Below are positions 1 to 37,500 of a stretch of 51,894 nt of DNA, in pieces. The notes beneath the pieces are model-generated. The model was not told where the DNA came from, did not search any database, and saw only the letters and a program-made list of their open reading frames with translations. Numbering within the stretch: the first letter of the stretch is position 1; each line of letters opens with the position of its first letter. The stretch spans positions 1-51,894 of the IMG/VR virus record IMGVR_UViG_3300037043_000387; one strand, written 5' to 3'. The position numbers were made by a program, and so were the translations under genes. Source of the DNA: a virus (taxonomy: Duplodnaviria; Caudoviricetes).

Positions 1-336
1 TTACTTCGATTTTAAAAACCTCGCAAATGCTTTCAAAATATCAACAATAAACCATCGACCGGCAGGGGGTAGGCTGCTAAACAGACGAAGCATGCTTGTC
101 TCTGGCTTTAACAGGTCGTCCATTATGGGTCGATAGAATTCGGATATGTCAATTTCAAGAGCGGTGGCCAGGCGAGCAACCGCCTCTTTCCCTGCTGATC
201 TGGCTCCGGACTCTATTTGTCCGAGGTTGTGAACCTCGGAGAGATCGGTAAGTTCTGCTTGGGTCAAGCCGCGGATGTGGCGCAGGCGAATCAGATTTGC
301 CCTAAAACGGGCATCGATGTCTAGTTTTGTAACCAT
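1..336 (-). CDS. XRE-family HTH transcriptional regulator
   Basis: NLIRLRHIRGLTQAEL...GQIESGARS...ARLATALEI is an HTH_3-type motif. Confidence 0.85.
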   Translation of the reverse strand: MVTKLDIDARFRANLIRLRHIRGLTQAELTDLSEVHNLGQIESGARSAGKEAVARLATALEIDISEFYRPIMDDLLKPETSMLRLFSSLPPAGRWFIVDILKAFARFLKSK

Positions 337-554
337 CTCACTATGTATCGGCTGGAGAATGGTTTTAGTAAACCGTTCAAATGGTTATCAATTTGATATT
401 AATTCATATAAACATTCATTATATTTCATATTTAAAACGGTCGTTGTCACCAAAATGATAATAATTCTAATTAGCGCGATTGTTACGGTACTTCTGGCGG
501 TATTGAAAATGCTTATATCCGCCCTTGTTGCAAAATACTGTACACGGAGGAAAT

Positions 555-710
555 ATGAACGATCTGACAGATACCGAGAAGATATCACTCCTGAGACGAT
601 TTGTGAGACAACGATTTCCGTTGCCGGTTTTGCTGCTACTGGTAGTTTCAGTGGTTGAGCCGATGGCGGGATCGACGTTGTGTGCCAGGTATATCAATCA
701 ACAGCAATAG
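555..710 (+). CDS. small hydrophobic hypothetical protein
   Basis: GGAGG RBS before ATG 555; hydrophobic LPVLLLLVVSVV; followed by a hairpin. Confidence 0.45.
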   Translation: MNDLTDTEKISLLRRFVRQRFPLPVLLLLVVSVVEPMAGSTLCARYINQQQ

Positions 711-718
711 ACCATGAG

Positions 719-736
719 GGCCGGAGCGATCCGGCC
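719..736. terminator. hairpin between convergent genes, probable terminator
   Basis: GGCCGGA-GCGA-TCCGGCC. Confidence 0.5.
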
Positions 737-737
737 T

Positions 738-1181
738 TTACTTTTGACCCTTCCTGTCCAGTTCTTCCAGTATATCCGCCACGTCATTAATGATTTTCCC
801 CGCCTCAATTAATTGGTGCCCCTTGTCAAGTTTTGCCAGCTCCTCGATAACCTGTTCTGCCACTGAAGGCATGATTCCGCATTGCTTGAAATATTCCAGC
901 GCTGCTTCTTTGACGGATCCTGATCCTGTTTTTGCGTAGGACAGGTTCGTGACTTCTGGTGGCCGCTTGGGCTCAAACATTTCACCTTCGCCGGTTTCCC
1001 ACCAAGTGTCGCTGATCCGGTAATACTGTCGCAGGAGGGTGATCAGGGTTTCGGAGGGCTCTTTTCCACCCGACTCTATAGCGGATATGTAACCGCCGGC
1101 GACTCGTAATGGCGCGGAAAACTCAACTTGGGTGAGCCTGAGTGCTTTTCTGATTGCTTTAATTTTGACGTTTGTATTCAA
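738..1181 (-). CDS. CI-like phage repressor (XRE HTH; no S24 peptidase domain seen)
   Basis: KIKAIRKALRLTQVEFS...YISAIESG...WWETGEGEMF; divergent from cro-like gene. Confidence 0.85.
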   Translation of the reverse strand: MNTNVKIKAIRKALRLTQVEFSAPLRVAGGYISAIESGGKEPSETLITLLRQYYRISDTWWETGEGEMFEPKRPPEVTNLSYAKTGSGSVKEAALEYFKQCGIMPSVAEQVIEELAKLDKGHQLIEAGKIINDVADILEELDRKGQK

Positions 1182-1188
1182 AGAAAGT

Positions 1189-1260
1189 TACCTTAGATGT
1201 TAAAAATAGCGAAAAAGCTATTGACAGCTTAACTCAGATGAATTATTCTTATCTCAGATG
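1189..1260. promoter_or_regulatory. lysis/lysogeny switch: PR-like sigma70 promoter plus three operators
   Basis: TTGACA 1221-1226, 17-bp spacer, TATTCT 1244-1249; repeats TACCTTAGATG 1189-1199, TAACTCAGATG 1230-1240, TATCTCAGATG 1250-1260 (imperfect CATCTnAGATG palindrome). Confidence 0.8.
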
Positions 1261-1316
1261 TTGTGGATAGTATATTTATTATCGTAAATATATACCAAAT
1301 TACAGTGAGTTGCGCA

Positions 1317-1547
1317 ATGAAGATCGATTATCAAGCTACAAAACAAAATATTTTTGATACGGGGCGGACCGTTGCGGGATGGTCCAGGCTGCATGGTTTG
1401 AATGCTAAATCAGTGGCGGTGTTCCTCGTCGGTAAGTTTGTGACGAATAATCCTGGATCCGGGATTTATGCCCAGATAGTTACGGCGTTGAAAGAGGATG
1501 GCTTTCTGGTCCAACTGCCGGAAGATGATCACGACCAGGCTGCATAA
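1317..1547 (+). CDS. Cro-like DNA-binding protein
   Basis: First gene after PR, 76 aa, GRTVAGWSRLHGL helix-turn-helix-like, ends DQAA. Confidence 0.7.
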   Translation: MKIDYQATKQNIFDTGRTVAGWSRLHGLNAKSVAVFLVGKFVTNNPGSGIYAQIVTALKEDGFLVQLPEDDHDQAA

Positions 1548-1565
1548 TTCATAATTATGTTGAAC
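1547..1565. promoter_or_regulatory. RTTCA-N9-TGAAC palindrome, copy 1
   Basis: ATTCA TAATTATGT TGAAC; five intergenic copies in the window. Confidence 0.7.
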
Positions 1566-1615
1566 AGCCTATCAGCCTATTCGCTACTCGCAAAATACTG
1601 AAAGGGGACAGTGCA

Positions 1616-1903
1616 ATGTGTCTGGAAATGCCTACTGGATTAACAACTTGTCAAAGCGTGAAGTCCTCAGCCATTTGCCACTGTTGCGGAAAGAGGTCGA
1701 GGCCGGTAGAGACTGATAGCGACGGAGAGCCTGATGTGTTGAGCTTGCCCCATGGTTGGTCACAAGCGCCCTTTCCCTGTGACCACAAGCATGCTGATGG
1801 GTCCGTAGGCTCGCAGTATACGTGTCCGGCCTGCAATAAGCGCTTGAATCGTGGCGAAACAGTTCGGATGCGGAACGGTTTGACTTGCCGGTTGTGGAGG
1901 TAG
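1616..1903 (+). CDS. hypothetical Zn-binding protein
   Basis: CHCCG and CPAC motifs; GGGG RBS. Confidence 0.6.
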   Translation: MCLEMPTGLTTCQSVKSSAICHCCGKRSRPVETDSDGEPDVLSLPHGWSQAPFPCDHKHADGSVGSQYTCPACNKRLNRGETVRMRNGLTCRLWR

Positions 1904-1905
1904 CT

Positions 1906-2154
1906 ATGCCTAGAATCTCGCAGTGTCAAAAAGAAATGATGGAAGCCATTGGCGAACTGGAGCCGGTTTCAATTTCCCGGCTAGGGGTTACAAGGCGATC
2001 GTTCAGGACATTCAGCATCCTTGTCAAGGAAGGCCTGGTTGAATATTACAGTCGCGGAATGTTCGGGGTTAATTGGAAACTGAGTGATAAGGGGCGCAGG
2101 TTTGTTCCTGTTGCTGGAATGAGACAGGGCGTTAAGGCCGCTTTGGGAGAGTAG
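1906..2154 (+). CDS. hypothetical, possible winged-helix protein
   Basis: GGAGG RBS; LVKEGLVE...WKLSDKGR resembles a wHTH wing. Confidence 0.55.
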   Translation: MPRISQCQKEMMEAIGELEPVSISRLGVTRRSFRTFSILVKEGLVEYYSRGMFGVNWKLSDKGRRFVPVAGMRQGVKAALGE

Positions 2155-2178
2155 CAAAATGCGAAAAAAGGACGGTGC

Positions 2179-2757
2179 GTGATGGACCTGCAAAAATATT
2201 GTTCCAAGGATGCTGAAAATTACGGCATGGACAAACCCTTTACCCAAGGAGACATGACATGGGCAACAAACGGATGGGTGGCAATCGGCGTACCCGCCAT
2301 CTCGGGTGTGTCTGAGAACGATATCTCTCCGATCATGGACAAATTGAGCAAGCCCGGAGGCGAAGAGACTTGGTTTGATTTACCAGAAATCAGTGTTGAT
2401 ACCTGTGAAGTTTGTCAAGGCAAAGTCGGGGGAATTGAATGTTATGAATGCAAAGGCCATGGACACGTCGCACTGAAACACGACTATGGCAAGGGCTATA
2501 CGATGTATGAAGGCATCGTGTGCGGCTCATGCGAGGGTGAAGGAACAGTTTCCATTTGCCCGTTTTGTTCCGAAACGGGTGTCGACACAACAAAGGGCAT
2601 GTTAATCATTGGCCAAGCTAAATTCAAGCAAAACGCTCTGTGGATGATTAAGGACTTGCCCGGTATTCAGATTGCCCCGACAGGCCCGACAACCTTCGCA
2701 TATCTCAAGTTTGACGGCGGCCGGGGGTATTTGATGCCGGGGGTCAGTTCTAAATAA
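2179..2757 (+). CDS. phage protein with DnaJ-like CxxCxGxG zinc fingers
   Basis: CEVCQG, CYECKGHG, CGSCEGEG, CPFC. Confidence 0.75.
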   Translation: MMDLQKYCSKDAENYGMDKPFTQGDMTWATNGWVAIGVPAISGVSENDISPIMDKLSKPGGEETWFDLPEISVDTCEVCQGKVGGIECYECKGHGHVALKHDYGKGYTMYEGIVCGSCEGEGTVSICPFCSETGVDTTKGMLIIGQAKFKQNALWMIKDLPGIQIAPTGPTTFAYLKFDGGRGYLMPGVSSK

Positions 2758-2767
2758 GGAGGTCGCT

Positions 2768-2884
2768 ATGCCCTATGACGAGGATTGGCCGTTGGTTTTG
2801 CCTGGTGAGGAAGAAACCGTTGACGAGTGGATGCGCAGGGTTGAGGTTGCATGCCCTGGAATGAGTAGTGAGATTCCATTTTAA
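2768..2884 (+). CDS. 38-aa acidic peptide ending ...SEIPF
   Basis: TAAGGAGG RBS; MPYDEDWPLVLPGEEETVDEWMRRVEVACPGMSSEIPF; read manually, below the ORF-track cutoff. Confidence 0.55.
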   Translation: MPYDEDWPLVLPGEEETVDEWMRRVEVACPGMSSEIPF

Positions 2885-2905
2885 GTTGTCGCTGAGGAGG
2901 ATGCT

Positions 2906-3181
2906 GTGGGTAGAAACAAGATTGAAAGGATGTGTTACGGCAATAGCACCTATGTCGCGAAGCGCGATGCTTTAATTCCTGATGCTGAGGCGTTTTGCGA
3001 CAACAAACTGAAGGTCGTGGACAAGAAAGACCGGTCAAACGACTGGACGCGGTTATTTATGGTCACCATGGACCGGATGTGGCGCTTGAAGCAACTGACG
3101 GATATGTCCGAGCACATGACGGTGGAGCTGGCTCGGATCCACGTGGAGCAGGCGGCCCTGCAGGAGCAACTGGGATGTTAG
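2906..3181 (+). CDS. hypothetical phage protein
   Basis: GAGGAGG RBS, tight operon packing. Confidence 0.65.
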   Translation: MGRNKIERMCYGNSTYVAKRDALIPDAEAFCDNKLKVVDKKDRSNDWTRLFMVTMDRMWRLKQLTDMSEHMTVELARIHVEQAALQEQLGC

Positions 3182-3396
3182 TTCAGTGTGAACGGATTGT
3201 TGATGGGTTTCTATCCAACGGCACTCCCAGGAGTGTGGAATACCGGAAGGGATGTTTGGCGGTGTTTCTGTTCCGGGATGGAGGGATTTGTATTCCTCAT
3301 CCGTTTGCCATGGGGACGGTCGAGGCGGATGCCTATTACGCGGGTATTGAACGCGGCCACCATGAGTGGGCTAAAAAAAGAATGGAGCCGAAATGA
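3175..3396 (+). CDS. hypothetical phage protein
   Basis: Overlaps neighbours; PRSVEYRKG...FAMGTVEADAYYAGIERG. Confidence 0.65.
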   Translation: MLVQCERIVDGFLSNGTPRSVEYRKGCLAVFLFRDGGICIPHPFAMGTVEADAYYAGIERGHHEWAKKRMEPK

Positions 3397-3599
3397 TTAT
3401 TGAACATGTTTTGACGACGGAGACGGTGGTGCCTGACCTGGCTTCATTTATGAGGCAACACCCTCACGCGCAGATTTTGAGGGTTGACGGCCGGGAGTGT
3501 TTTGGGAAGTGCGCGACGTGCGGGACGCCGATCCTGGCCGGTGATCAATACATCCAGTGGAATACCGGAATTCTTACTTGCGGCGATTGCAGAGGTTGA
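3393..3599 (+). CDS. small Zn-ribbon protein
   Basis: CATCG...CGDC; ATGA overlap with upstream gene. Confidence 0.6.
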   Translation: MIIEHVLTTETVVPDLASFMRQHPHAQILRVDGRECFGKCATCGTPILAGDQYIQWNTGILTCGDCRG

Positions 3600-3600
3600 T

Positions 3601-3804
3601 ATGGCAAGAACTCTGAGCAAAGAAGACGTTGCGGCCGTGGCAGCTGAGGTCGTGAGGCAGATCCGGCCGATGTTGGGTATTGAGGGTCACGTTGTTGATT
3701 ACTCCGAAGATGAACGGGTGAGCGGCCGGCGCGGCGCGGAAATTTCCGCCCAGGCCCAGGCTGTTGTGGCTCAAATGAGGGGGCGTCGTGGCAATGGTGG
3801 TTGA
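3601..3804 (+). CDS. hypothetical protein
   Basis: GAGG RBS; MARTLSKEDVAAVAAEVVRQI. Confidence 0.6.
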   Translation: MARTLSKEDVAAVAAEVVRQIRPMLGIEGHVVDYSEDERVSGRRGAEISAQAQAVVAQMRGRRGNGG

Positions 3805-3955
3805 GTGTATGTGCTGTCACAGCCGTTTGGGGTTGAAGAGTTCCGAGGGCGGCCGGAGTACGGTTACGGGCGGGATCTGTGAGCGGTGCCTGGATCTTCA
3901 TTATCCGCTGTATGCGGGACGGGTGCGAATGCTGCGGATGCAGCAGGCGGCGTGA
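3794..3955 (+). CDS. small Zn-binding protein
   Basis: MVVECMCC...TGGICERC, 53 aa, read manually. Confidence 0.55.
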   Translation: MVVECMCCHSRLGLKSSEGGRSTVTGGICERCLDLHYPLYAGRVRMLRMQQAA

Positions 3956-3968
3956 GAGGGGTGTGAAC

Positions 3969-4118
3969 GTGGACGCAGATCTATTTACCCTTGGTGAGGT
4001 TATTCTTTGGTGCGTTGTTTCCGCGATAGTCAGTCCGGTGTTGTGCTGCATGATCCGGGCAACGTGGCGGCTGCGGCGCGATCGGTTTTTGTCCAGGAAC
4101 TTCGGAGGGCATTTCTAA
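3969..4118 (+). CDS. small membrane protein
   Basis: Hydrophobic VILWCVVSAIVSPVLCCMI; GAGAGGGG RBS. Confidence 0.45.
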   Translation: MDADLFTLGEVILWCVVSAIVSPVLCCMIRATWRLRRDRFLSRNFGGHF

Positions 4119-4297
4119 TGCGGAAATATCACAGTGTTTGTCCTGGGTGCGGTAGGTCGATCGAACGGGCCTATGGTGAGATGGGCGAGGGGTTGCTGTA
4201 CGAGGATGGCTGTCAGTGCCGGGTAGAGTTGGCGCTGGGGGATTGGGCGGCGATTGGTTTGGTTTTGCTGGCCTGTTTGGTTTTGGCGGTGGGGTGA
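4118..4297 (+). CDS. small protein with CxxC and C-terminal TM helix
   Basis: CPGCG; WAAIGLVLLACLVLAVG; TAATG coupling. Confidence 0.5.
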   Translation: MRKYHSVCPGCGRSIERAYGEMGEGLLYEDGCQCRVELALGDWAAIGLVLLACLVLAVG

Positions 4298-4300
4298 GAC

Positions 4301-4762
4301 ATGACATTCATTGAAGCGGTACAGGCATTAAAGGACAAAAAATGCAGGGGTATCAAGCGACTTGATTGGGGTGACAGTTCTGTTGTGTGGCTGATGGGTA
4401 TGGAAAGTCTGTGTATTTGTGACCTTAACGCCATTGGGGATCCTGACCATCCTTCAAGAGAAATGTATTCCCCGTGTTCGTTTGCTGTTCTCGCTGATGA
4501 TTGGACGACGGTTAATCAGAGGCTTCCTGATGGGTTATTTTCTCAGGTACCAGATGCTGAATCTGTGGCGTTTCAACTCGGTATCATGCGGAACGTAGAG
4601 CGCGAAATCCCAAAACGCAAACGGAAGTCAACTCAGAATTGGGTGCTTGTTCAGGATTACCTGCTCGGGCACACATCAAAGGGCGGCAGTACCTCATGTT
4701 GTATTCACTGCCGATGGATGGGCGTTGATCCTGACGGCTACACATTTCGTGGTGAAATATAA
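4301..4762 (+). CDS. apparent two-part protein; N-terminal half DUF2829/Tad2-like
   Basis: MTFIEAVQALK...IKRLDW...YSP...VLADDW, then an unrelated-looking C-terminal half; stop codon lies in ATATAAC. Confidence 0.55.
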   Translation: MTFIEAVQALKDKKCRGIKRLDWGDSSVVWLMGMESLCICDLNAIGDPDHPSREMYSPCSFAVLADDWTTVNQRLPDGLFSQVPDAESVAFQLGIMRNVEREIPKRKRKSTQNWVLVQDYLLGHTSKGGSTSCCIHCRWMGVDPDGYTFRGEI

Positions 4763-4793
4763 CGGCTTGGCGGGTGACGGCCAAGGAGAAACC

Positions 4794-4934
4794 ATGCAAC
4801 CGAGATCAGATGAAAAAGTAGAATGTTCGCACTGTAATTACCTTTTTTCAGTTTGGGACCCGGCTTGTTTCTCCTTTGAAAAACTCAATGCTGTTAGGTT
4901 TTGCCCTCAATGTGGGCGCGTATTGTCGGTTTAA
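4794..4934 (+). CDS. small Zn-ribbon protein
   Basis: AAGGAG RBS; CSHC...FCPQCG; stop codon lies in GTTTAAC. Confidence 0.6.
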   Translation: MQPRSDEKVECSHCNYLFSVWDPACFSFEKLNAVRFCPQCGRVLSV

Positions 4935-4953
4935 CCAGCGAGGGGGAATCGAA

Positions 4954-5346
4954 ATGGACTCAACAGCGATGCAGCTCCACAATAGAGCCACAAGGCGCGA
5001 ATCCTGTGAGGATGTGCTTGGTTGCCTCGGCATAGGGAATGCTGAGAGATTGAACCACCTGGCGAATGATGCTGATTTTGAGGCCGCAACCGCCGGAATC
5101 ATACTGGAGTCTATCCGCGACGGAGTGTTTGCCACCAGTGAGAGCCAGCGGCCTGTATTCATACAGGCCGATATCCTGCCGGAATCCGACATGACCGTTC
5201 TGATTTGTATGCCAGAATCGGACAATCCCGTATCGGTAGGATTCCATGATGGCGAGGCATGGTTTGATTACAACGGGGCTCCTCTGACAGGCAGAAACGC
5301 TGTGAACCACTGGATGATGTTGCCTGAGCCAATGGGGGAACTATGA
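4954..5346 (+). CDS. DUF551-like phage protein
   Basis: LPESDMTVLI...VNHWMMLPEP. Confidence 0.7.
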   Translation: MDSTAMQLHNRATRRESCEDVLGCLGIGNAERLNHLANDADFEAATAGIILESIRDGVFATSESQRPVFIQADILPESDMTVLICMPESDNPVSVGFHDGEAWFDYNGAPLTGRNAVNHWMMLPEPMGEL

Positions 5347-5540
5347 GAAAACTGATTTTGGCGGCTTGCTGCATTAGCTTGTTATCTGGTTGCAGCGTGA
5401 CCAAAAATGATATTTCCTATGCAACATCTCTCTGTCGAGAGAACGGTGGGATAGAGGTTATTAGGTTGGACGGCCTTCGATTCCGGACTGTTACTTGCGG
5501 CAATGGGGCCACTTTCAGCTATTCACACGATTTCAGATAA
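5343..5540 (+). CDS. small lipoprotein (putative first integron cassette gene, reverse orientation)
   Basis: Lipobox LLSGC; body lies between GTTATCT (5381) and AGATAAC (5535). Confidence 0.7.
   Translation: MRKLILAACCISLLSGCSVTKNDISYATSLCRENGGIEVIRLDGLRFRTVTCGNGATFSYSHDFR
5368..5388 (-). mobile_element. attC-like arm (L''-spacer-R'')
   Basis: Plus strand GCTGCATT-AGCTT-GTTATCT; the core is the exact complement of the attI-like core; partner arm not adjacent. Confidence 0.45.
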
Positions 5541-5573
5541 CAATGATTGGACCGCTTCTATGCAGTCTATCTC
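5534..5573 (-). mobile_element. attI-like integron recombination site
   Basis: Minus strand GAGATAGACTGCATAGAAGCG-GTCCAAT-CATT-GTTATCTG: L-like box, short spacer, GTT core; directly 5' of and divergent from intI, as in canonical integrons. Confidence 0.55.
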
Positions 5574-5615
5574 CATCACGTGATTTTAACTCAATGTGTT
5601 GAAAGGAGTCGGAAA

Positions 5616-6632
5616 ATGAACACTAAACCTGTTGAACAAACCTTGCATTCGCAAAACCAGCAGAAGCCTCGTGTTCTTGACCTGATCCGCAATACGTGCC
5701 GGGTTAAGGGGTACAGTCCGAAAACGGCAGGCACCTATGGAGATTGGGTTAAGCGGTTTTCCTTTTTTCATGGTCGACGTCCGCTATCGGAGATGGGCGA
5801 GGTTGAGATTGAGGCGTTTTTGACTCATCTGGCGATTGATCACAATGTTGCACCTGCCACACAGAACCAGGCGTTAAATGCTCTGGTCTTCCTCTATAAG
5901 CACATCATTCCCAAACAAATCGGAAATATCGACGCCGTGAGGTCGAAGAAAACAAAGCGGTTGCCGACTGTTTTTACCCGGTCGGAGGTGTCGGCCGTTT
6001 TTCAGCATCTGTATGGCGCAGACAGGATTATGGCCTCTTTGCTCTATGGGTGTGGATTGCGGCTGAATGAATGTCTGCAATTGCGGGTGAAAGATGTCGA
6101 TTTCGAGCGACAGACGGTAACTGTCCGTGAGGGTAAGGGGAGTAAGGATCGGGTGGTGATGTTGCCCGCGGTTGTTTGCGGACCGCTGAAGGCTCACCTG
6201 GAGAGCGTGGCGGAGGTGCACAGACAGGATGTTGCGAACGGGATCGGTGTTTCCCTTCCTGGCGCTTTGCACAAGAAGTACCCGAAGGCTCCTTTTGCCT
6301 GGGGTTGGTTTTACATTTTCCCGGCTCGAAAGGTTTGCACTGATCCGCGTTGGGCTCCAAACGGGCCGGTGCGGCATCATATCCATGAGACTGTTTTGCA
6401 GCGCTCGGTAAAGGAGGCGGTTGGAAAGTCGCAGATCGTCAAGCCCGGCGGTTGTCATACCTTCCGGCATTCGTTTGCGACTCACTTGCTGGAGGATGGT
6501 TACGATATCCGGACCGTCCAGGAGTTGTTGGGTCATGCGGATGTGCGGACTACGATGATTTATACCCATGTGATGGGTAAGGGGTGCTCCGTGCGGAGCC
6601 CAATGGACAAAATGGAGGTTTGTCATGCCTGA
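5616..6632 (+). CDS. intI: integron integrase (tyrosine recombinase, IntI family)
   Basis: N-terminal YSPKT..Y..WV..F...IEAFLTHLA...TQNQALNAL; LLYGCGLR; GKGSKDR; integron-specific insertion VSLPGALHKKYPKAPFAWGWFYIFPA; HTFRHSFATHLL; LLGH...TTMIYTHV; AAAGGAG RBS. Confidence 0.95.
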   Translation: MNTKPVEQTLHSQNQQKPRVLDLIRNTCRVKGYSPKTAGTYGDWVKRFSFFHGRRPLSEMGEVEIEAFLTHLAIDHNVAPATQNQALNALVFLYKHIIPKQIGNIDAVRSKKTKRLPTVFTRSEVSAVFQHLYGADRIMASLLYGCGLRLNECLQLRVKDVDFERQTVTVREGKGSKDRVVMLPAVVCGPLKAHLESVAEVHRQDVANGIGVSLPGALHKKYPKAPFAWGWFYIFPARKVCTDPRWAPNGPVRHHIHETVLQRSVKEAVGKSQIVKPGGCHTFRHSFATHLLEDGYDIRTVQELLGHADVRTTMIYTHVMGKGCSVRSPMDKMEVCHA

Positions 6633-7017
6633 AATAATCGGAGGTGGTTCGTATGCGGATCTGCTTGATTCGGTGCCGAACATGACTGAGGCCTTGCGGC
6701 GCTGCTACCTACTTGCGGGCCAGGCGCCGGAGTCAGCCGCTTGGGAATTGAAAATTGATTACTGCCATTTCTCACGGATGATGCGGTCTACTGATTCACG
6801 CTCTTTCCCGCCGGATAAGATCGAGCTGCTGATGAAGCGGATGGGTAATCAGTTTCCCCTGGATTGGCTGGCACATCGAATGGGCCTGGTCTGTTATCCG
6901 CTGGAGTTGATGCAGGTGCTGGATGGGATTAAGGCGGCGCTGCAGGCTGAGGGGCGGCCGGCGAAGTTTGCGGTTGCGGAGCTGCTGCGGGCCGTCGAGA
7001 GCTTGCGGGCGGCATAG
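6625..7017 (+). CDS. phage CII-like regulatory protein
   Basis: AAWELKIDYCHFSRMM...FPPDKIELLM...GNQFPLDWLAHRMG; overlaps intI stop. Confidence 0.65.
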   Translation: MPEIIGGGSYADLLDSVPNMTEALRRCYLLAGQAPESAAWELKIDYCHFSRMMRSTDSRSFPPDKIELLMKRMGNQFPLDWLAHRMGLVCYPLELMQVLDGIKAALQAEGRPAKFAVAELLRAVESLRAA

Positions 7018-7018
7018 T

Positions 7019-7216
7019 ATGGGGTCCGGGCGGGAAATAAAACCTACTCAGAAGTCGCCGTGTGAGTGGTGTGCGGCTGCCAGGGAGTGCGACAGCGAGA
7101 GGCGAACGGATGTAAAGGCAAAGTTTGTCGTCTCTCGTTACAGCGGAGGTTTGCTGTATCACTGCCCTGAGCATGAGCCGATCTGGTTTAAGGGTATAGA
7201 GGGGTGTGCGCCGTAG
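7019..7216 (+). CDS. small Cys-rich hypothetical protein
   Basis: CEWC...C...HCPEH. Confidence 0.45.
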   Translation: MGSGREIKPTQKSPCEWCAAARECDSERRTDVKAKFVVSRYSGGLLYHCPEHEPIWFKGIEGCAP

Positions 7217-7240
7217 GAAGGCAAGGATGAAGGTTGAAGT

Positions 7241-7579
7241 ATGAATTATGAAGGAGGTGAGGTGGTGACGGCGGTTAAGGTGATTACGACTGAGGACAAA
7301 CAGCGTGCGGTTTTGTTGACAATCGGGCTGTGCTGCATTGAGGCCGTGATGAAATTGGAAAAACCTTCGAGTTTTGTTCACAACAAACTGAATGCGGCCT
7401 GTACGGCCCTGGCGAGGGCGACCGATGATTATGTCAGTCATTCTTTTCAGGGTGAGAACATGGCGAAGGCCGAGGCGGTGTTTGACGCTACGGAGCGGCA
7501 TGTTCAGCGGTTGTTTCGGTTGCCGAAGGTGAAAAAAGAGCGGGTGAGAGGCCGGGACGGCAGGTTTTTGGCGGCGTGA
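7241..7579 (+). CDS. hypothetical protein (start may be GTG near 7265)
   Basis: AAGGAGGTG RBS; C-terminal RGRDGRF. Confidence 0.65.
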   Translation: MNYEGGEVVTAVKVITTEDKQRAVLLTIGLCCIEAVMKLEKPSSFVHNKLNAACTALARATDDYVSHSFQGENMAKAEAVFDATERHVQRLFRLPKVKKERVRGRDGRFLAA

Positions 7580-7604
7580 TTATTACGGATAAGGAGGTTT
7601 CAGC

Positions 7605-7973
7605 GTGGCATTGACGGATGGTGATACCGTAAGTTTGGACAACCTGAAGGGTGGCGGGGTTCGGCAGTTATTCGATGAAGAGTTGGATAAGGTCTTGGCG
7701 AACATCATGGACCCGAATACCGAACCGGAGACGGTCAGAGTGGTTACGATCACGGTGAAAATTAAGCCGGATCGGGATCGATCTACGGCGATGGTGGCGA
7801 TTATCCCCAGTTCGAAGCTGGCGCCTGCGGTGGCGTTGGGTACCCGGATGTTCTTCGGCAAGCAGGGGGGGAAGGTCCTGGCCTGGGAGCATGATCCCAC
7901 ACAGATGTCCCTGCCGATGAATCGTGATGCTGTTTCGGTGGTGGATGGCGGGAAGTCGGCGGCTGGGGAGTAG
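7605..7973 (+). CDS. conserved phage protein (often labelled 'replication terminator protein')
   Basis: LKGGGVRQLFDEELDKVLANIMDPNT...ITVKIKPD...SKLAP; TAAGGAGG RBS. Confidence 0.75.
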   Translation: MALTDGDTVSLDNLKGGGVRQLFDEELDKVLANIMDPNTEPETVRVVTITVKIKPDRDRSTAMVAIIPSSKLAPAVALGTRMFFGKQGGKVLAWEHDPTQMSLPMNRDAVSVVDGGKSAAGE

Positions 7974-7977
7974 TTAA

Positions 7978-8127
7978 ATGCGGGGACTGAAGGCGAAAGC
8001 GCTGCGGCAACTGGTGTATGGGGATTGGGCGGTACCGCGTACCCGGCTGTATCGGTCCGGTTTTGGTGTGCGATTCAACCAGGGCCTGCGTCGGAAGTAC
8101 TTGATGCTGAAAAAATATTTTAGGTAA
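7978..8127 (+). CDS. small basic protein
   Basis: MRGLKAKALRQLVYG...RRKYLMLKKYFR, read manually. Confidence 0.5.
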   Translation: MRGLKAKALRQLVYGDWAVPRTRLYRSGFGVRFNQGLRRKYLMLKKYFR

Positions 8128-8138
8128 AGGAGATCTGC

Positions 8139-8855
8139 ATGATTAAGGCGTTTGTTGAGAAGATTTTGGACCTGGCGGTTATCGAGCATTACTTTACGTC
8201 TGATGGCCGGGAGTTTACTTCGAAGAAAATGGTCCCCGTTGAGGATCCGGGTTTTCCCATTCTAAAGGTCAATACGTTGAAGGGTCTGGTGGATTATCTG
8301 AAGAGCGGCTTCGATGGGGAGGAAATCGGCGGCGATCCTGCTCGGGTCGCCCTGCACATCATTTCCCCAACGGTTGTGCAAGCTTTCCTTCCAGTTTCGG
8401 GGGCATGGCGCAATCGTGATTATATTATTTCCGCGACATGGGATCAGACACCATTTCCTTTCGGGGATTGGCTTTCCCAGGAAAGTTTCGTAATCAAATT
8501 GATGGCGACGTTCAAGCAGGATGAGGATCTGGACAAGATCCTTGAGGTGGCCGGGAAGATTTGCTGCGAGGACAAGGCGGAAGTGATCGATGATGGTGTT
8601 ACCCAGGCGGTGACCTACCAGCGTGGGGTTAAAAAAGAGAGCGGGAAAATTTTACCGCTTCGTCCGGTTCTCAGGCCGATCAGAACGTTTACCGAAGTAG
8701 AGCAACCTGCTAGTGAGTTTGTATTCAGACTCCGGAGCGAGCCGGTTACGTTGTCACTCCATGAGGCGGATATGGGCGCATGGGAGATGGTGGCGAAACA
8801 TAATATCAAGGCGTACCTGGAAACCGAGCTGCCGGGGATACCTGTTTTCGTGTAA
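8139..8855 (+). CDS. conserved phage protein (partner of 7605..7973)
   Basis: DDGVTQAVT...LRPIRTFTEVEQPASEFVFR...LHEADMGAW. Confidence 0.75.
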   Translation: MIKAFVEKILDLAVIEHYFTSDGREFTSKKMVPVEDPGFPILKVNTLKGLVDYLKSGFDGEEIGGDPARVALHIISPTVVQAFLPVSGAWRNRDYIISATWDQTPFPFGDWLSQESFVIKLMATFKQDEDLDKILEVAGKICCEDKAEVIDDGVTQAVTYQRGVKKESGKILPLRPVLRPIRTFTEVEQPASEFVFRLRSEPVTLSLHEADMGAWEMVAKHNIKAYLETELPGIPVFV

Positions 8856-8864
8856 CTGACTTTG

Positions 8865-8903
8865 GGTCGGTGGGGCTCTCCAATCCCTGCCGGCCGTTTT
8901 TTT
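8865..8903 (+). terminator. intrinsic terminator
   Basis: GGTCGGTGGGG...CCCTGCCGGCC followed by a T7 tract. Confidence 0.7.
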
Positions 8904-8916
8904 GAGGGGTGTGATC

Positions 8917-9042
8917 ATGGATAAAAGCGAGGGGTATCTTACGCATCCGTGTCAGGGGTGCGAGGTTGGGTATCAGAGTTGTGAGTTGTACTGCCAGTTG
9001 TTGGAGCGGTGGAACATGCGGCACATTGGAGATGTCGGGTGA
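8917..9042 (+). CDS. small Cys-rich protein
   Basis: MDKSEGYLTHPCQGCEVGYQSCELYCQLL...; GAGGGG RBS. Confidence 0.45.
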   Translation: MDKSEGYLTHPCQGCEVGYQSCELYCQLLERWNMRHIGDVG

Positions 9043-9131
9043 TAATTTGTCCCGAGTGCGGTGCCGAGCTGCGGCATGAGTGTGGGTGCGCGACCTGCCC
9101 AGTTTGCGGGTGGGGGTTGTGTGGTGGATAA
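9039..9131 (+). CDS. 30-aa Zn-ribbon peptide
   Basis: MIICPECGAELRHECGCATCPVCGWGLCGG. Confidence 0.5.
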   Translation: MIICPECGAELRHECGCATCPVCGWGLCGG

Positions 9132-9441
9132 GGATCTGCTTTCCTTTGCCGTCGTGACAATCCGGAACAGGGACGGCCTGGAGATCGATATTACCGACGA
9201 CCCGGCGGAGCGTGTTCGCCGGGTCGAATCCGGGCGACTGGTGATGTCCGGCCAGGAGATTGAGCGCCTGAAGGCTGCGGGGATGACTTCGGACAAGGCG
9301 GCGCTGCTGGTGCCTTTTTTGACGGCGTTTCCGGGCGGAATTGTGGAGAGTATTGAGCCGAGTAGTGGGCCGTATCCGTGGGATACGGTGGAACCGGTCC
9401 AGGTGAAGGAAGAGAAGGATGGGCAGAGATCTTGGTGGTGA
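9124..9441 (+). CDS. hypothetical protein
   Basis: Operon packing; ORF in track (longer start at 9061 unlikely). Confidence 0.55.
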   Translation: MDKDLLSFAVVTIRNRDGLEIDITDDPAERVRRVESGRLVMSGQEIERLKAAGMTSDKAALLVPFLTAFPGGIVESIEPSSGPYPWDTVEPVQVKEEKDGQRSWW

Positions 9442-9453
9442 TCGGAGACGATA

Positions 9454-9759
9454 ATGAACAAACAAGAACATCTTATGACTGTATTCGCGGAAGAACTTGG
9501 CGAGGTTGCCATGGAGCTTCTGGACCTGCAGAAGCTGATTTTTAAGGCACAGCGATTTGGCATTGACGAACAGCGCGATTTGCCGACCAGTAATCGGCAA
9601 CGGATTGAGGCAGAGTGGCAGGATCTGCTTGGGGCCGTGGAGAAGTTGCGCGAAGTCGGAATTGAACTGAAGCCGGATATTGCAGCGATCAGCGCTAAGA
9701 TGGAAAAGGTTGAACTGTACTGCGGATACGCCGAAAGCCTGGGAACGTTGAACGCATAA
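9454..9759 (+). CDS. MazG-like nucleotide pyrophosphohydrolase
   Basis: AEELGEV...KAQRFG...IEAEWQDLL (ExxE/ExxD). Confidence 0.7.
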   Translation: MNKQEHLMTVFAEELGEVAMELLDLQKLIFKAQRFGIDEQRDLPTSNRQRIEAEWQDLLGAVEKLREVGIELKPDIAAISAKMEKVELYCGYAESLGTLNA

Positions 9760-9774
9760 TATCAAGGGGGAAAA

Positions 9775-9990
9775 ATGTTGCGCTGGATACCGCCTGAACA
9801 GGCGCCGAAAGACGGAACGGTGATTGTCGGTAAATTCAATGATACTCATCCTGAGCGAATTGTCTGCATGTGGGACACGCTTGAGGATTGTTGGGTTGGG
9901 GCGTATCCGCAGAATGATCCGGCGGATGGAAGGTTTTTCGAGAATCAGCATTTCCATGCTGATGATCTGGAAGTGTGGGCTGAGTTGTGA
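9775..9990 (+). CDS. DUF551-like small protein
   Basis: WIPPEQAPKDGTVI...WAEL. Confidence 0.6.
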   Translation: MLRWIPPEQAPKDGTVIVGKFNDTHPERIVCMWDTLEDCWVGAYPQNDPADGRFFENQHFHADDLEVWAEL

Positions 9991-10427
9991 GCTTAAATGA
10001 ATCTACAAAAGCCCGATATTTCGTGACGGGAAATAGAATTTCTCCGTTTGTTTGTGTCCTTGGGGAATGGAAAGATAATGCGGCGCTTATCAGGTCAGTT
10101 CGGGCGGGAGTGCCGATACTGACGCGGGAGATGGTTGAAGCCGAACATGAATTTTGTGCAAACAGTACCAGAAGCACGTTTGTTTACTGGAAATCGGTAA
10201 GGGAAATGCTTTGGACGCATAAAAGCCCTGACCTCGAACATGTCTATGATGTCCTCGTTCAACGTCTGAGGAGCAGGAGCGAGCGGATTAGGAAGGTTTT
10301 GGCACTATCTGTAAAACGCACAGCCGAGAAAGAAGAACAGCGCTCAAGAGATAGAAGCATTGCGGAGCTAAATAAGCTGAGGCGCGAGCCTCTTCACGAG
10401 AGGATTTTATGCAAGAGCCAATCATAA
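9987..10427 (+). CDS. hypothetical protein
   Basis: GTGA overlap, 146 aa. Confidence 0.55.
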   Translation: MSLNESTKARYFVTGNRISPFVCVLGEWKDNAALIRSVRAGVPILTREMVEAEHEFCANSTRSTFVYWKSVREMLWTHKSPDLEHVYDVLVQRLRSRSERIRKVLALSVKRTAEKEEQRSRDRSIAELNKLRREPLHERILCKSQS

Positions 10428-10561
10428 TCGAAAAAGTGGCAAATGGATTTATTGTCAACTTAGCCCCGATGGATAGAGGTCAGTTTATCTCTCGGGAATC
10501 TGCTCATGTTTTCGAAAGTATGGAGTCATTGCAAGAACATATTAAAGAGTATTTTGAGTGA
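10409..10561 (+). CDS. small phage protein
   Basis: MQEPIIIEKVANGFIV...HVFESMESL; GAGG RBS. Confidence 0.6.
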   Translation: MQEPIIIEKVANGFIVNLAPMDRGQFISRESAHVFESMESLQEHIKEYFE

Positions 10562-10717: not shown

Positions 10718-12562
10718 ATGGCTTCAAGTCGCAAAGGGATACTGGCGGAGAAGAACGGCCGTTTCCGGATCCCGGCTCAATTCGGTTTTAATTTTGAGGA
10801 AATGGTGGTGGATAATTTCGCCGGCGGCGGTGGTGCCTCGATGGGTATTGAGGCGGGCTTGGGCCGTCCGGTTGATATTGCAATAAATCATGACCCGGGG
10901 GCGGTCGATATGCACCTGGTTAATCATCCACTGACCCGGCATCTGTGTGAATCGGTGTGGGATGTCGATCCGGTGGAGGTTACTGGTGGCCGTCCCGTTG
11001 GCCTGGCGTGGTTTTCTCCGGACTGTAAGCACTTCTCGAAGGCCAAGGGTAGGAAGCCGGTTCAGAAGACGATCAGGGGCTTGGCCTGGGTTGTCTTGAA
11101 GTGGATAGGTAAGAAGCGGCCACGGATTATCATGCTGGAGAATGTCGAGGAGTTTGTTACCTGGGGCCCGCTGGTTAAAAATGGCGATGGTGAACATTAC
11201 CCGTGCCCGAAGCGGCGGGGAAAAACCTTTCAGGCTTTCGTGAAGGCAATCCGGAAGCATGGCTATGAGGTCGAATACCGGGAGATGCGGGCTTGCGATT
11301 ACGGCGCTCCGACATCACGAAAGCGGTTCTTCCTAGTGGCTCGCTGTGACGGTGAGTTGATTGTCTGGCCGGAGCCTACTCACGGGGATCCGAAAAGCGC
11401 AGCGGTGAAGTCAGGGAAGCTCAAACCGTGGCGGTCCGCTGCCGAGTGTATTGAATGGAGTAGGCCGTGTCCCTCAATTTTCCTGTCAAAAGAGGAAGGG
11501 AAGGTTCTGAATGTGCGGCGTCCCCTGGTGGACGCTACTCTACGGAGGATTGCCCGTGGTGTGATGCGCTATGTGGTGGAGAGTCCGGAGCCGTTTATTG
11601 TTTCGTATTACGGAGAGAAAAAAGGCGGTGGTTTCCGTGGGCAGAAGGTCACTGAGCCACTGCGAACGCAGACGACGGAAAACAGGTTTGCCGTGATTGC
11701 TCCTCAGATTGTGGGGATAGATCATCGAGGGGCGGGAGACTCTTCCGTGTGGCCGGGAGACTCTCCGTTGACAACGGTAACGGCTGAGGCCCGGCATGCG
11801 GTCGTAGCGACCTTCCTAGCAAAACACTATAGCGGGGTTGTAGGCTCCAGTATTTCCGCTCCGGTTGGGACAATAACCAGTGTAGACCATCATTCCCTGG
11901 TGGCGGCCAGTCTTATACGGCATTTCGGGGAGAGCGTCGGTCAAGCCGTTGATGCTCCGGCACCTACCGTTATGGCTGATGGCGGCGGAAAGACCGGGAT
12001 CGTAGCGGCCAACCTGGTCCGCAATTTCGGATTATCTCATTCTGCACCTGCAGACTCACCTTTGCTTACTGTCACATCAAAAAAGAAAGATTCTCTGGTA
12101 ACTTCCCACCTCGTGAAGCTTCGCGGTACCTGTAAGGATGGACAGGCGGTTACTGGTACGATGCCCACGGTTACAGCCGGTGGCCTCCACCTGGGGGAAG
12201 TCCGGGCGTTTCTTATCAAGTATTACGGTCAAGGGACGGGGCAATCTCCGGTTGATCCTATTGCTACCATTGTCGGGCGTGACCGTTTTGGTCTGGTGAC
12301 GGTGAAGGGCGAAGAGTACCGGATTGCTGATATCGGTATGCGGATGTTGGCTCCAAGGGAATTGTTCAATGCCCAGGGATTTCCGGCTGATTATATTATC
12401 GACCGGACGGCGGACGGCAAGAAGATCACGGCGACTGAACAGGTCAAGCGCTGCGGGAATTCTGTTCCTCCTGCGTTTGCGGAGGCTTTGGTGAGGGCTA
12501 ATTACCGTACGTCGAAGCAAATTCAGGATGGCAAGGGGCTGCTATGCGCATCCGCACAATAA
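10718..12562 (+). CDS. C5 DNA cytosine methyltransferase
   Basis: DNFAGGGG (motif I), SPDC (IV), ENV (VI), RKRFFLVA (VIII), RELFNAQGFP, CGNSV (X); long repetitive P..T.T variable region. Confidence 0.95.
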   Translation: MASSRKGILAEKNGRFRIPAQFGFNFEEMVVDNFAGGGGASMGIEAGLGRPVDIAINHDPGAVDMHLVNHPLTRHLCESVWDVDPVEVTGGRPVGLAWFSPDCKHFSKAKGRKPVQKTIRGLAWVVLKWIGKKRPRIIMLENVEEFVTWGPLVKNGDGEHYPCPKRRGKTFQAFVKAIRKHGYEVEYREMRACDYGAPTSRKRFFLVARCDGELIVWPEPTHGDPKSAAVKSGKLKPWRSAAECIEWSRPCPSIFLSKEEGKVLNVRRPLVDATLRRIARGVMRYVVESPEPFIVSYYGEKKGGGFRGQKVTEPLRTQTTENRFAVIAPQIVGIDHRGAGDSSVWPGDSPLTTVTAEARHAVVATFLAKHYSGVVGSSISAPVGTITSVDHHSLVAASLIRHFGESVGQAVDAPAPTVMADGGGKTGIVAANLVRNFGLSHSAPADSPLLTVTSKKKDSLVTSHLVKLRGTCKDGQAVTGTMPTVTAGGLHLGEVRAFLIKYYGQGTGQSPVDPIATIVGRDRFGLVTVKGEEYRIADIGMRMLAPRELFNAQGFPADYIIDRTADGKKITATEQVKRCGNSVPPAFAEALVRANYRTSKQIQDGKGLLCASAQ

Positions 12563-34554: not shown

Positions 34555-37500
34555 ATGGACTGGCTTAACGATATCGTTGCGAATGCGAAGAAGCAGGTTC
34601 TGACCGGCGAGGCTGGAAAAGGAATGGCAGAACTGGAAGCCATGGCGACCTTTACTCCTGAACCAACCAATGCCGTGAAGGAATTCGGCAAGGGCGTGGT
34701 GGCGGGGACTCTTCAGCTTCCTCAGATGGCCGGAGGCCTGGTCAAGGTTGCCGGTGATCTTGTCGGTAGCGAAACCGTGGCTGATATCGGTGAAGATGCG
34801 GTGAACTACTGGGGGGAGAAGACGGCCCCCTATACGCCACGTGTCGGATCGATCGAGGACGTGGAAAACGTCGGTGATTTTGTCGATTATGCGGCGGCCG
34901 GCATAGGTTCTCTGGTCCCGACAGTTGCCGCCTCGATGATCGGGGGCGGTGGCGCAGCGGCGATCGCAGGCAAGTCTGCTCTCAAATCGGCGGCAAAGAA
35001 GGAACTGACAAGGGAAGCTACCGAAGCCCTGGTATCCAAGGCTGTTACCCGTGGTGCAATGGCGGGGGCTGGCTCAACGTCCGCCGGTATGGAGATTGGT
35101 TCCATCGGAGCCGATCAGATGGAGGCCGGGACGGAGGATCCGATAAAGGCGATTCTCTATGGTTCCGTGGCTGGTGCATTGGATATTCTCCCGGTTACCA
35201 ACCTGCTGGCAAAGTTTCCGGCATTCAAGTCCCTGCAAAAGATACCGCTTTTCAAGTCACCAGAAGGCAGGGCGTGGTATACACGCGGCGTTATGGAGGG
35301 CTTTAAACAGTCCGGGATGGAAGGTGCCCAGGAAGCGGCACAGACGATGCTGGAACGGGCTGGTGCCAGTCGGGAAGTATTCAGCGACCAAGGCATGATG
35401 GAGATCCTGAACGCCGGTATCATCGGAGCAATTGGCGGCGGCGTCATGGGTGGCGGCGCTGGTGTGTTGAGTGGCAGGGGTAAGGAACGGGTAACGGGGA
35501 ACGAGGAGAACCTTGAGACTCAGACTCCTGGTCTTAATCCGGCTGCCGTTCAACCGGATCCCTTTTCGGATGCCGGTGATCCTCCTCATCCGGTCGTGGA
35601 TCTGGAGTCTCAGGAAAACCCGGTTTTGCCGGAAGCGCCGAAGGGACCGTTGGCCAGGGCGGCGGAGGCTGCTGGTGCTTCAATTTTTCCGGGGATCGGG
35701 GATGTCGTTCCCGGTTCTGTAACCGCTTCCGTTCCGCCGATTGGGGGGCAAACCTCTGATGAGCTGGTTCTTGATGAAGCCCGTGATTGGGCTGAGGAAG
35801 AAATCAAGGCGGGGAAAACTCATTTGATGCGACAGGTGCGGGAGCACCCGAATTCCTATGCCCTGCGGATTCTGGACTCATTCAAGCGGCGGGCAGAAGT
35901 TCCGGTTGTGAACCAGGGTGAGACAGGGCCGAAGTACGCCAATGTTTCCCTGGTCAATCCCGAAACAGGTATAGCCGAGATGGTGACGCCTGCTGAAGTT
36001 ATGGACCGGCTCAAAACTGGCTGGCGTGCTCCGGAAGCACCGTCAAACACTCCTGATGTAGACATGCTTGGCAGCGTTACGGACGCGGATCGTGGCCTTC
36101 TCCAGTCGGCTCGTGACAGGGCCGGTTACTGGGAACGCGGGTCGATGGATAATGGCCAGACAAATAAGAATGAGCTGTTCCCCTGGTTGAAGGATTGGGG
36201 AAAGACCACTCCGGCAGAGGTGTCCAAGGCTATCGGGAATTTCTTGGAAGGTAAGAATCTGGGCGAAGTGCAGCAAAGGCTGGTTACCGCGGCTCTCCAA
36301 TTTGAGCGGGAAAGCAGGCAGCCAAGGGGTGCAGCTCCGGCGCAGGGTATCGGTGACCTGATAGCCGAACGCAGGGGGGTGAAGGGCGTAGCCAAGGAAC
36401 AGGGGGCAGGGAACAGGGGAAATCTTGAATCTCAGGCCTCGAACCTTGAACCTGCTGTTTTGAAGAAGGCACAACTCTATGCTGAGAAGGCGGGGCTTGA
36501 TCTTGATGGTTGGAGCAATGACGAGATTTCCGATTTTGTCGGCAAATATGACTCGTTTGTTAAGAGTAAGTCCCGGGCGGCGGAACCTATCGCCAGTATC
36601 GGGGATCTTATTGCGCAGCGGCGGGCGATGAATCAGAAGAAGGGGACTCCTGGAATTGAAGCAGGGGCACACGAAGCGGCTACCTCTCCCCTTAATGATC
36701 TTGCAGAACCGAGCGAGGCCCAGGTAAAGGCTGGGAACTACCGGAAGGGCCATGTTTCTATTCAGGGCCTTGATATCTCAATCGAGAATCCGGCGGGATC
36801 CGTCCGTTCAGGAAAGGACCAGAACGGAAAACCGTGGTCTACCGCTATTCATCATCATTACGGCTATATCAAAGGAACTGTCGGCAAAGACAAGGACCAT
36901 ATCGATACCTTCATCGGTGACAAGCCGGAAGGCGATCGCGTTTTTGTTGTCGACCAGATTGATCCAAAGAGCGGCACGTTTGACGAGCACAAGGTGATGA
37001 TCGGCTTTGACTCCAAGAATGAGGCGACTCTTGGCTATTTGCGCAACTATGACGATACCGGACAAACTCGCATTGGTGATGTTTCCGAGATGACGATGGA
37101 TGACTTCAAGGCTTGGCTCAAGAGCGGGAAGACTAAGACGCCGGTTGGGCAGTTGAAAAGGGGGGATGAATCACAAGGCAAAGGAAAGCCGGCGGTGCAA
37201 CCTGCCAATGAGGCAAGGGGAAAGATCGTTGCGAAGCTGAAGGCTAGTGGTGCCGATGAAGCGACGGCCGGTAAGATTGCTGATCTGATTGCGGAAGAGT
37301 ATGCCGGTAAGAAGACGCTGGGGCCTGCCTGGCTGGGTAAGAGGATCAAGGAAGGCTGGATTGATAAATGGAAAGTCCAGACTCAGTTGAAAAGCGGAGG
37401 AAAAGAGCTTGAGGATCTGTCACCTAAAGAAATAGCGGCTCTGCCTGAAGGAAAGGTTGATCATCCGGTTACTGCTGCGCTGAAGGGGAAAGGAGCGGAC

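Follow-up and report, generated by a model that had tools for sequence, protein, structure and literature searches.

What is an integron integrase gene doing among the early genes of a temperate phage? The question arises from virus record IMGVR_UViG_3300037043_000387 of IMG/VR, a provirus record that we analysed over its whole length of 51,894 bp (hereafter, the window; completeness estimate 94%) and whose layout is that of a temperate phage. Integrons are known as bacterial devices, and the few cases in phages have been read as captured pieces of their hosts; here, the integrase (IntI) and its putative insertion site (attI) sit in the early operon of the phage itself, and a relative with true cassettes has the same block. 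Profile matches and comparison with relatives point firmly to a bona fide intI that is preceded, within the early operon, by a conserved 5′ block, the outer edge of which is a GTT core where the gene content of the relatives changes. On balance we lean towards reading the locus as a phage-borne integron platform that, in this phage, is without attC sites.

A predicted integron integrase in the early operon

The open reading frame (ORF) at 5616–6632 on the plus strand, which starts with an ATG behind an AAAGGAG ribosome-binding site, matches the integron integrase model TIGR02249 with 403.1 bits (cut-off 265) over profile positions 1–315 of 315, and its scores with the XerC, XerD and XerA models are far below their cut-offs. 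Its product has the tyrosine-recombinase fold (PF00589, 121 bits; PF13495, 87 bits) and aligns end to end with the Vibrio integron integrase 2A3V (IntI4 / VchIntIA; E = 1.9e-75), including the IntI-specific segment (ALxxKYPxAxxxWxWxxxFP), where the two differ by only a 2-residue gap. The stretches GLRLNE, GKGSKDR, HTFRHSFATH, LGH and IYTH line up with matching stretches of 2A3V that we take to carry the catalytic residues (R, K, H-x-x-R, H and Y). In the provirus record L001, both ends of which coincide by homology with those of the window, IntI has 98% amino-acid identity to that of the window at 91–93% nucleotide identity, which suggests purifying selection on the gene. Judged by its sequence, the ORF is a genuine, intact integron integrase gene. 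The first-pass annotation had described an intact intI that is co-oriented with the early operon and overlaps a CII-like gene, and both points are borne out: the overlap with the putative CII-like activator gene (6625–7017, plus strand; phrog_101, E = 4.2e-8) is 8 nt. A scan of the viral collection found 294 stretches that encode IntI relatives; in a quick tree, the phage IntIs lie on long, deep, unresolved branches.

A conserved attI-like block with a junction at GTT

Directly 5′ of intI lies a conserved non-coding block of 77 bp (5539–5615, minus strand), delimited by a four-way alignment and by homology with the relative L111, whose IntI is 72% identical to that of the window and which has the same block. 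The attI-like string that had been noted on the minus strand just 5′ of intI is there, with positions 5553–5534 reading GGTCCAATCATTGTTATCTG. The alignment compares four junctions (the window, two copies in L001, and L111), and in all four identity starts exactly at AACAATGATT: homology sets in at AAC 5539–5541, the minus-strand GTT core, in 4/4 junctions, and the genes to the left are unrelated. The bases immediately left of the junction are likewise unrelated, being CAGAT in the window, GGTTT in each of the two L001 copies and CAGTG in L111. DNA homology between the window and L111 begins at L111 1789, which corresponds to window 5539, and the L111 junction, AGTGAAC, adjoins a 33-bit attC whose end, GTTCACT, is complementary to it. 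Read on the minus strand, the conserved sequence ends in ...CATTGTT and gives way to variable DNA, as expected after an attI crossover at G|TT. We infer a crossover point at the minus-strand GTT, 5541 to 5539, and these comparisons support the view that the site just 5′ of intI behaves as an attI.

In L001 the region is a tandem (2881–9893) of the form A1-X1-B1|A2-X2-B2, in which the copies are 90–92% identical and B1 is a truncated intI. The variable parts X1 and X2 and window 4533–5538 have no genes in common. As a separate observation, the truncated L001 intI (5698–6603) is fused at ...GCCCGG|GTGAGG to the second copy of the upstream early segment, with no GTT at the joint. A candidate simple site within the block, TTTTAAC-N7-GTTGAAA (5586–5606), was discarded; it scored 7.4 bits, and its GTT is ATT in L001 copy 2 and missing from copy 1.

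Relatives with attC arrays

We searched for attC sites with three covariance models. R1 was built from nine canonical sites of four chromosomal integrons whose IntI is 45–50% identical to that of the window, R2 from the 36 sites that R1 found in 35 chromosomal loci (nine of them training sites; 35/36 on the strand that an array upstream of intI should occupy), and R3 from 10 sites of the phage contigs L002 and L109. They replaced a heuristic that combined core pairs with folding, which found the true sites in the controls and discriminated poorly. As positive controls, the models returned 17 matches of 51–68 bits in an unseen chromosomal locus (L062), and among the viral loci 131 matches at E <=0.01 in 47 of the 77, of which 128 were on the minus strand.

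L111, the relative with the same attI block, has three attC sites on the minus strand directly upstream of intI, at 121–205 (26.5 bits), 589–647 (41.4 bits) and 1049–1106 (33.1 bits). The inner core of each site is the exact complement of the outer core of the next site, and the last inner core, GTTCACT, complements the junction AGTGAAC; the cassette rule, by which a cassette opens with bases complementary to its own R″ box, holds at 3/3 junctions. The plus strand carries the ORFs of the array, which terminate in the TAAC of the site that follows; one of them, bounded by attC sites, encodes a DUF551 protein (37 bits). The same contig also holds, at 6956–8292 and 4 kb downstream of intI, a second tyrosine recombinase of Xer-like type, followed by an attC match of 41.2 bits at 8236–8292.

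L109 has the phage backbone of the window, 16 window proteins matching in order, and encodes an IntI that is 43% identical to that of the window (TIGR02249, 328 bits). The attC matches upstream of its intI score 33.0, 15.6 and 12.1 bits, the first two on the minus strand. In this otherwise colinear phage an integron module of intI and two to three attC sites (L109 8415–12492) takes the place of window 9441–10558, a location other than that of the module in the window; IntI modules thus occur at different places in one phage backbone.

The third relative, L002, is the early region of a phage and encodes a repressor, a CII-like protein, a serine recombinase, SSB and DnaB. It has seven attC matches of 34–13 bits in an array at 4611–7384. 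Its plus-strand ORFs have their stop codons in the TAAC of one R box, and for some the start appears to be the ATG within GTTATGA of the other R box. One of its cassettes encodes a radical-SAM protein, and a DNA methyltransferase gene lies between the array and intI. The cassette rule holds, with 7/7 matches, for 5/6 adjacent pairs in L002 and 2/3 in L109, against 1/36 and 0/6 non-adjacent pairs. The 10 attC sites of L002 and L109 are 85.9% paired, compared with 65.1% after shuffling, a level that 0/500 shuffles reached, and 11/16 pairs show changes on both sides in an alignment that was itself fitted to the model. We regard the attC sites of L111, L109 and L002 as bona fide.

Cassette genes that run towards intI

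The first-pass annotation had proposed that cassette genes face intI so that the phage's early transcript reads them. The orientation was found in the three relatives, where attC and ORF strands are opposite, and is unproven for the four genes of the window itself. In L111, L109 and L002 the attC sites have minus-strand polarity, and those ORFs that match known families lie on the plus strand, running towards intI; they encode a DUF551 protein (L111), a DnaB-like protein and a phrog_1273 member (L109), and a radical-SAM protein (L002). Between the sites of L109, two plus-strand ORFs match phage families and 0/3 scanned minus-strand ORFs do. The longer ORF lies opposite the attC strand in 4/6 intervals of L002 and 2/3 of L109, compared with chromosomal controls in which it lies on the attC (minus) strand in 13/14 intervals (L022) and 11/16 (L062). 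Over 89 intervals of 30 viral loci, the plus-strand ORF was longer in 43, the minus-strand ORF in 23, and 23 were undecided; the same tally in the chromosomal controls was 5 versus 20 of 30 (Fisher's exact test, P = 1.2e-4, computed with 44 in place of 43). We treat this lean towards reversed ORFs as a lead, since shadow ORFs in GC-rich DNA and the near-duplicate contigs L159, L160 and L163 weaken the tally. In the three relatives themselves the reversed-cassette design is real, and it appears to be undescribed.

How such an arrangement could work follows from the geometry of the reaction. After infection or induction, IntI would be translated from the PR-type early transcript and would recombine attI, at G|TT, with circles that bear an attC. 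The polarity of attC relative to attI would be fixed by this reaction, and the only promoter would lie on the far side of the array; under these two constraints, a cassette would be expressed only if its ORF were antisense to the attC top strand. The pattern in L111, L109 and L002 agrees with that expectation. In the window, the candidate PR-like promoter for the whole plus-strand early operon, intI included, is TTGACA-17-TATTCT at 1221–1249 (plus strand; 10/12), a consensus match in a region where the count of such matches is not above the shuffled expectation; divergent from the operon is a CI-like repressor gene (738–1181, minus strand; phrog_8, E = 3e-10; phrog_4, E = 9e-8). The only candidate for a Pc in the window is a weak minus-strand match inside intI (6056–6027, 9/12), and again the total of matches is not above the shuffled expectation.

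We propose tentatively, as a reading slightly less probable than not, that several temperate-phage lineages carry an integron in the early operon with "backwards" cassettes, whose stop and start codons lie in R boxes and which are read by the early promoter rather than by Pc. It would serve the phage's own swapping of small accessory genes (DUF551, methylases, radical-SAM, possibly anti-defence), would be induced together with the prophage, and the window would be a member that became fixed by loss of hairpins. If this holds, phages possess a dedicated gene-capture system that is timed to induction, and a pool of cassettes exists whose orientation is selected by phage promoter geometry, which bears on how cassettes arise; cassettes could, moreover, pass directly between phages and the integrons of bacteria.

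Core-like sequences around the four genes upstream of intI

Four plus-strand genes precede the attI-like block in the window. The first (4301–4762) encodes a 153-aa protein with a weak Tad2-like N-terminal domain (PF11195, 22.7 bits, below the cut-off of 25), and the variable region begins inside it. Its stop codon lies in an ATATAAC core that is followed by a hairpin with a 6-bp stem (4766–4785), together a possible attC remnant (4757–4785). We set aside a 12-nt match here, TATAACGGCTTG (4758–4769), to the first attC of L109, which is at chance level (E = 0.35), other 12-mers matching elsewhere equally well. The second gene (4794–4934) encodes a 46-aa zinc-ribbon protein with sub-threshold zinc-ribbon Pfam matches only; its stop codon lies in CGGTTTAACCAGCG (4927–4940), which holds a perfect RYYYAAC core and of which the same 14-mer occurs inverted in L001 at 5328–5341. 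The motif GTCGGTTTAAC also makes up the copy-1 junction of L001. Enrichment of GTCGGTTTAAC in the window, allowing up to 2 mismatches, was considered and dropped (9 matches, 10 expected), only the copies with 0–1 mismatch at gene ends being notable. The third gene (4954–5346) encodes a DUF551 protein (PF04448, 22.3 bits, cut-off 22) and stops in TGA (5344–5346), and the fourth (5343–5540), in the unit adjoining attI, encodes a 65-aa lipoprotein (phrog_6873, E = 8e-8) with the lipobox LLSGC.

Three of the four genes stop in TAAC cores (stop codons 4760–4762, 4932–4934 and 5538–5540), as had been claimed, compared with 1/24 of the other listed plus-strand early genes (Fisher's exact test, P = 0.0047, with region limits that were chosen after the fact). 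The lipoprotein gene is also where a perfect 10-bp inverted repeat lies, TTGTTATCTG (5379–5388) and CAGATAACAA (5534–5543). The left arm holds a GTTATCT core, falls within the codons of the lipoprotein signal peptide, as the first-pass annotation had stated, and occupies the position expected for the R″ box of an attI-proximal cassette, with neither an L″/L′ stem nor an R′ box after it; the right arm holds the junction core. One unit of the window thus obeys the cassette rule (GTTATCT 5381–5387 / AGATAAC 5535–5541), with the rest of the attC absent. Arms of perfect inverted repeats of at least 10 bp that are no more than 300 bp apart make up 0.82% of window bases (mean of block shuffles, 0.39%), so that a junction inside such an arm is unusual, as a single observation chosen after the fact. 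The "attC-arm geometry" that had been seen here stands as far as the string GCTGCATTAGCTTGTTATCTG on the plus strand (5368–5388) and the perfect repeat are concerned; it fails in that the order GTT...AAC flanks the gene and there is no second arm, the proposed arm at 5368–5387 having no partner. This order is the geometry of a cassette between two sites, and a single attC would instead read AAC...GTT.

One explanation of these features is that the window holds a complete, active integron, with the three or four upstream genes as mobile reversed cassettes and unusual attC sites embedded in coding sequence. The TAAC stops, the 10-bp repeat that obeys the cassette rule, the 14-mer core motif shared in inverted form with L001, and the stop and start codons inside the attC R boxes of L002 all agree with it. 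We nevertheless find it improbable, as none of the cores has a hairpin partner, only a 19-nt gap follows GTTTAAC, the lipoprotein ORF, which overlaps the stop codon of the DUF551 gene, continues through the putative R″ box, and the contigs of four runs contain no joints; moreover, the unit 5381–5541 has no homology to the L002 cassette with the same cores, its score being at the level of the null. Mobility of the four genes as cassettes is therefore unproven.

A second explanation, which we hold to be very improbable, makes the 10-bp repeat the boundary of an invertible segment (5389–5533) whose inversion by IntI would switch the lipoprotein, as in Fim or shufflon systems. Inverted repeats around 145 bp beside a tyrosine recombinase would suit it, as would a 9-bp counterpart, GTTAAACCG / CGGTTTAAC, around the last gene of L001 copy 1; but only 6 bases match in L001 copy 2, the contigs of the four runs contain no opposite-strand joint at 5388/5534, and the cassette rule predicts the same geometry. 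Under the platform reading that we favour, the four genes would have lost their attC hairpins, or never had them, with only the cores remaining, and by the canonical route they would now be fixed and no longer mobile. The remaining cores (ATATAAC, GTTTAAC and GTTATCT/AGATAAC) may be such remnants, with chance plus ordinary mosaicism as the alternative.

Weighing the integron against a phage integrase

Several results weigh against the platform reading. The window is without canonical attC sites: the prediction that covariance models would find one failed in window 1–6000, and likewise in L001 1–10000, with R1, R2 and R3 run with filters off and with working controls, the models, built here, standing in for IntegronFinder. 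The best scores in the window (9–14.5 bits, E >=0.56) were at 75–113, 1227–1266, 25422, 27994, 29020 and 31319, all outside the region, and the best score within 3700–5700 was 7.4 bits. With gaps of 31, 19 and −4 nt, the four genes are packed too closely for hairpins to fit between them. The expectation that breakpoints among relatives would be at GTT/AAC proved right for the right edge of the variable region only; its left breakpoints, one at 4531/4532 inside the Tad2-like gene, where homology between the window and L001 copy 2 ends, and the other at a TGA stop (4297), have no cores. Sharp breaks at gene ends are normal in phage mosaicism, and TAAC occurs at 0/5 internal gene boundaries of L001. 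In L109 the CII-like gene directly follows a DUF551-like gene and the IntI homologue is 5 kb further on, so that the DUF551 gene of the window, at least, may be ordinary backbone. Lastly, the contigs of runs X17, X19, X22 and X24 have the same arrangement as the window, with no excision or inversion joint at 5381 or 5538–5541, although contigs hide rare forms.

These points bear also on an alternative that we regard as unlikely without dismissing it, namely that IntI is the phage's own integrase/excisionase or a Cre-like resolvase, that the upstream variation is mosaicism on conserved flanks, and that the cores are coincidental. The left breakpoints are then typical mosaic joints, and the absence of attC from the window is as it should be. 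IntI is the sole tyrosine recombinase in the window (the only PF00589 match) and in the L109 record (97% complete), both of them proviruses, and the window record contains neither a serine recombinase (PF00239) nor an rve transposase (PF00665), although the ~6% of the genome that is missing could hold a conventional integrase. The gene is co-transcribed with early genes and overlaps the CII-like gene, and the int gene of lambda is likewise tied to CII. An attP, however, would be split in a provirus, and the site beside intI is intact, with phage genes on both sides, in three provirus records (window, L001 and L109-type). Between the left part of the provirus (in L045, 1.8 kb) and the last 2.2 kb of the window there is no common repeat of at least 11 nt, in records from which host flanks have been trimmed. 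A plain phage integrase also leaves unexplained the true attC arrays, with cores that follow the cassette rule, in relatives that share either the attI block or the phage backbone. The integron role and the phage-integrase role do not exclude each other.

Relation to known integrons

The platform resembles classical integrons (class 1 IntI1/attI1; Vibrio IntIA, 2A3V) in having an IntI with the family-specific segment and a putative insertion site 5′ of intI with a candidate crossover at a GTT, and its relatives share with them the R″/L″/L′/R′ hairpins, an attC top strand that points away from intI, and the cassette rule. It differs from them in that intI belongs to the transcript of a phage early operon and does not diverge from the array, a Pc/Pint pair is not apparent, the cassette ORFs of the relatives are antisense to attC and run towards intI, and the window is without attC. 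Integrons with an inverted intI, as in Treponema, Chlorobium and some planctomycetes, have intI flipped relative to attI and the array downstream. They share with the present arrangement that intI and the cassette ORFs run in the same direction; here, in contrast, the polarity of attI and attC relative to intI is canonical and it is the ORFs inside the cassettes that are flipped. The lambda-type int under CII control is comparable in being a tyrosine recombinase gene among early genes beside a CII-like gene, but the protein here is of the IntI family and the adjacent site is unsplit in provirus records.

Only one study in the literature searched, two Shewanella phage papers aside, bears on phage integrons, and that literature contains no reversed cassettes in a phage early operon. 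As far as the main text of that study goes, 10,705 phage genomes yielded three complete integrons, one In0 and 17 CALINs, which its authors read as pieces captured from the chromosomal integron of the host, as a class 1 mosaic (in P1) and as a cryptic prophage (in Shewanella) (Qi et al. 2023, PMC9892861). A tblastn search with the window IntI returned Vibrio phages p16 and p42, Shewanella M16-3 and P1 at 41–47% identity, the same records as are named in that text. Those phages are temperate like the window, carry intI, and include one In0; the cases described there differ from the present one, whose platform has early genes of the phage on both sides and is found in four lineages. The main text of PMC9892861 does not contain the words "reverse", "opposite" or "early", and "orientation" occurs twice (in a vector oriT and in a cited title), never of cassette genes. 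In0 elements, as classed by IntegronFinder and in the main text of PMC9892861, have an intact intI with no detectable attC nearby, which is also what we found in the window with our own models as a surrogate for IntegronFinder, and the IntegronFinder scheme would probably file the locus as In0. Unlike an In0, the window shows gene turnover at the core of its junction, and the neighbouring unit obeys the cassette rule.

Other features of the provirus

Two helix-turn-helix (HTH) regulators are encoded on the minus strand at the left end of the window, one of them at the very edge of the record (1–336; PHROG transcription-regulator families, best E = 1.6e-6), and L001 begins at the homologous base. 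A single long plus-strand operon follows the PR-like match and comprises small early genes, a C-5 methylase, a replication initiator, terminase, portal and head genes, and an ORF of 5,066 codons. The window contains no tRNA genes, and an Rfam search over its whole length gave no match at the gathering score and returned nothing attC-like; over 3500–8000, with E values up to 10, there were two chance matches to long non-coding RNA families only. The methylase of the early operon, a C-5 cytosine DNA methylase of 614 aa, is encoded at 10718–12562 (plus strand; PF00145, 93 bits), and the 5,066-codon ORF is a single ORF of the late region (34555–49755, plus strand) that is followed by a 42-bp imperfect palindrome (49855–49896).

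A perfect 13-bp inverted repeat, CTGCGGATACGCC, at 9720–9732 and 9900–9912 spans two neighbouring small ORFs, and in one X24 contig position 9732 is joined to 9899 on opposite strands, which could be an inversion or an assembly fold-back. A purine-rich stretch of 30 nt (7222–7252) is common to very high-depth contigs of three runs, in which it lies beside the apparent 5′ part of a tRNA gene; the bin that holds it has a depth of 172 in X19, compared with 2–9 in covered neighbour bins, which could reflect a low-complexity match or a host-derived segment. L045 extends the window leftwards by 1,385 bp, and this extension (L045 1–1385) encodes on the minus strand a 234-aa membrane protein, a 100-aa Cys-rich secreted protein and a 129-aa HTH protein, in ORFs that are just outside the provirus boundary and may still belong to the phage. 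The stretch is present in 24 coal and groundwater metagenome runs.

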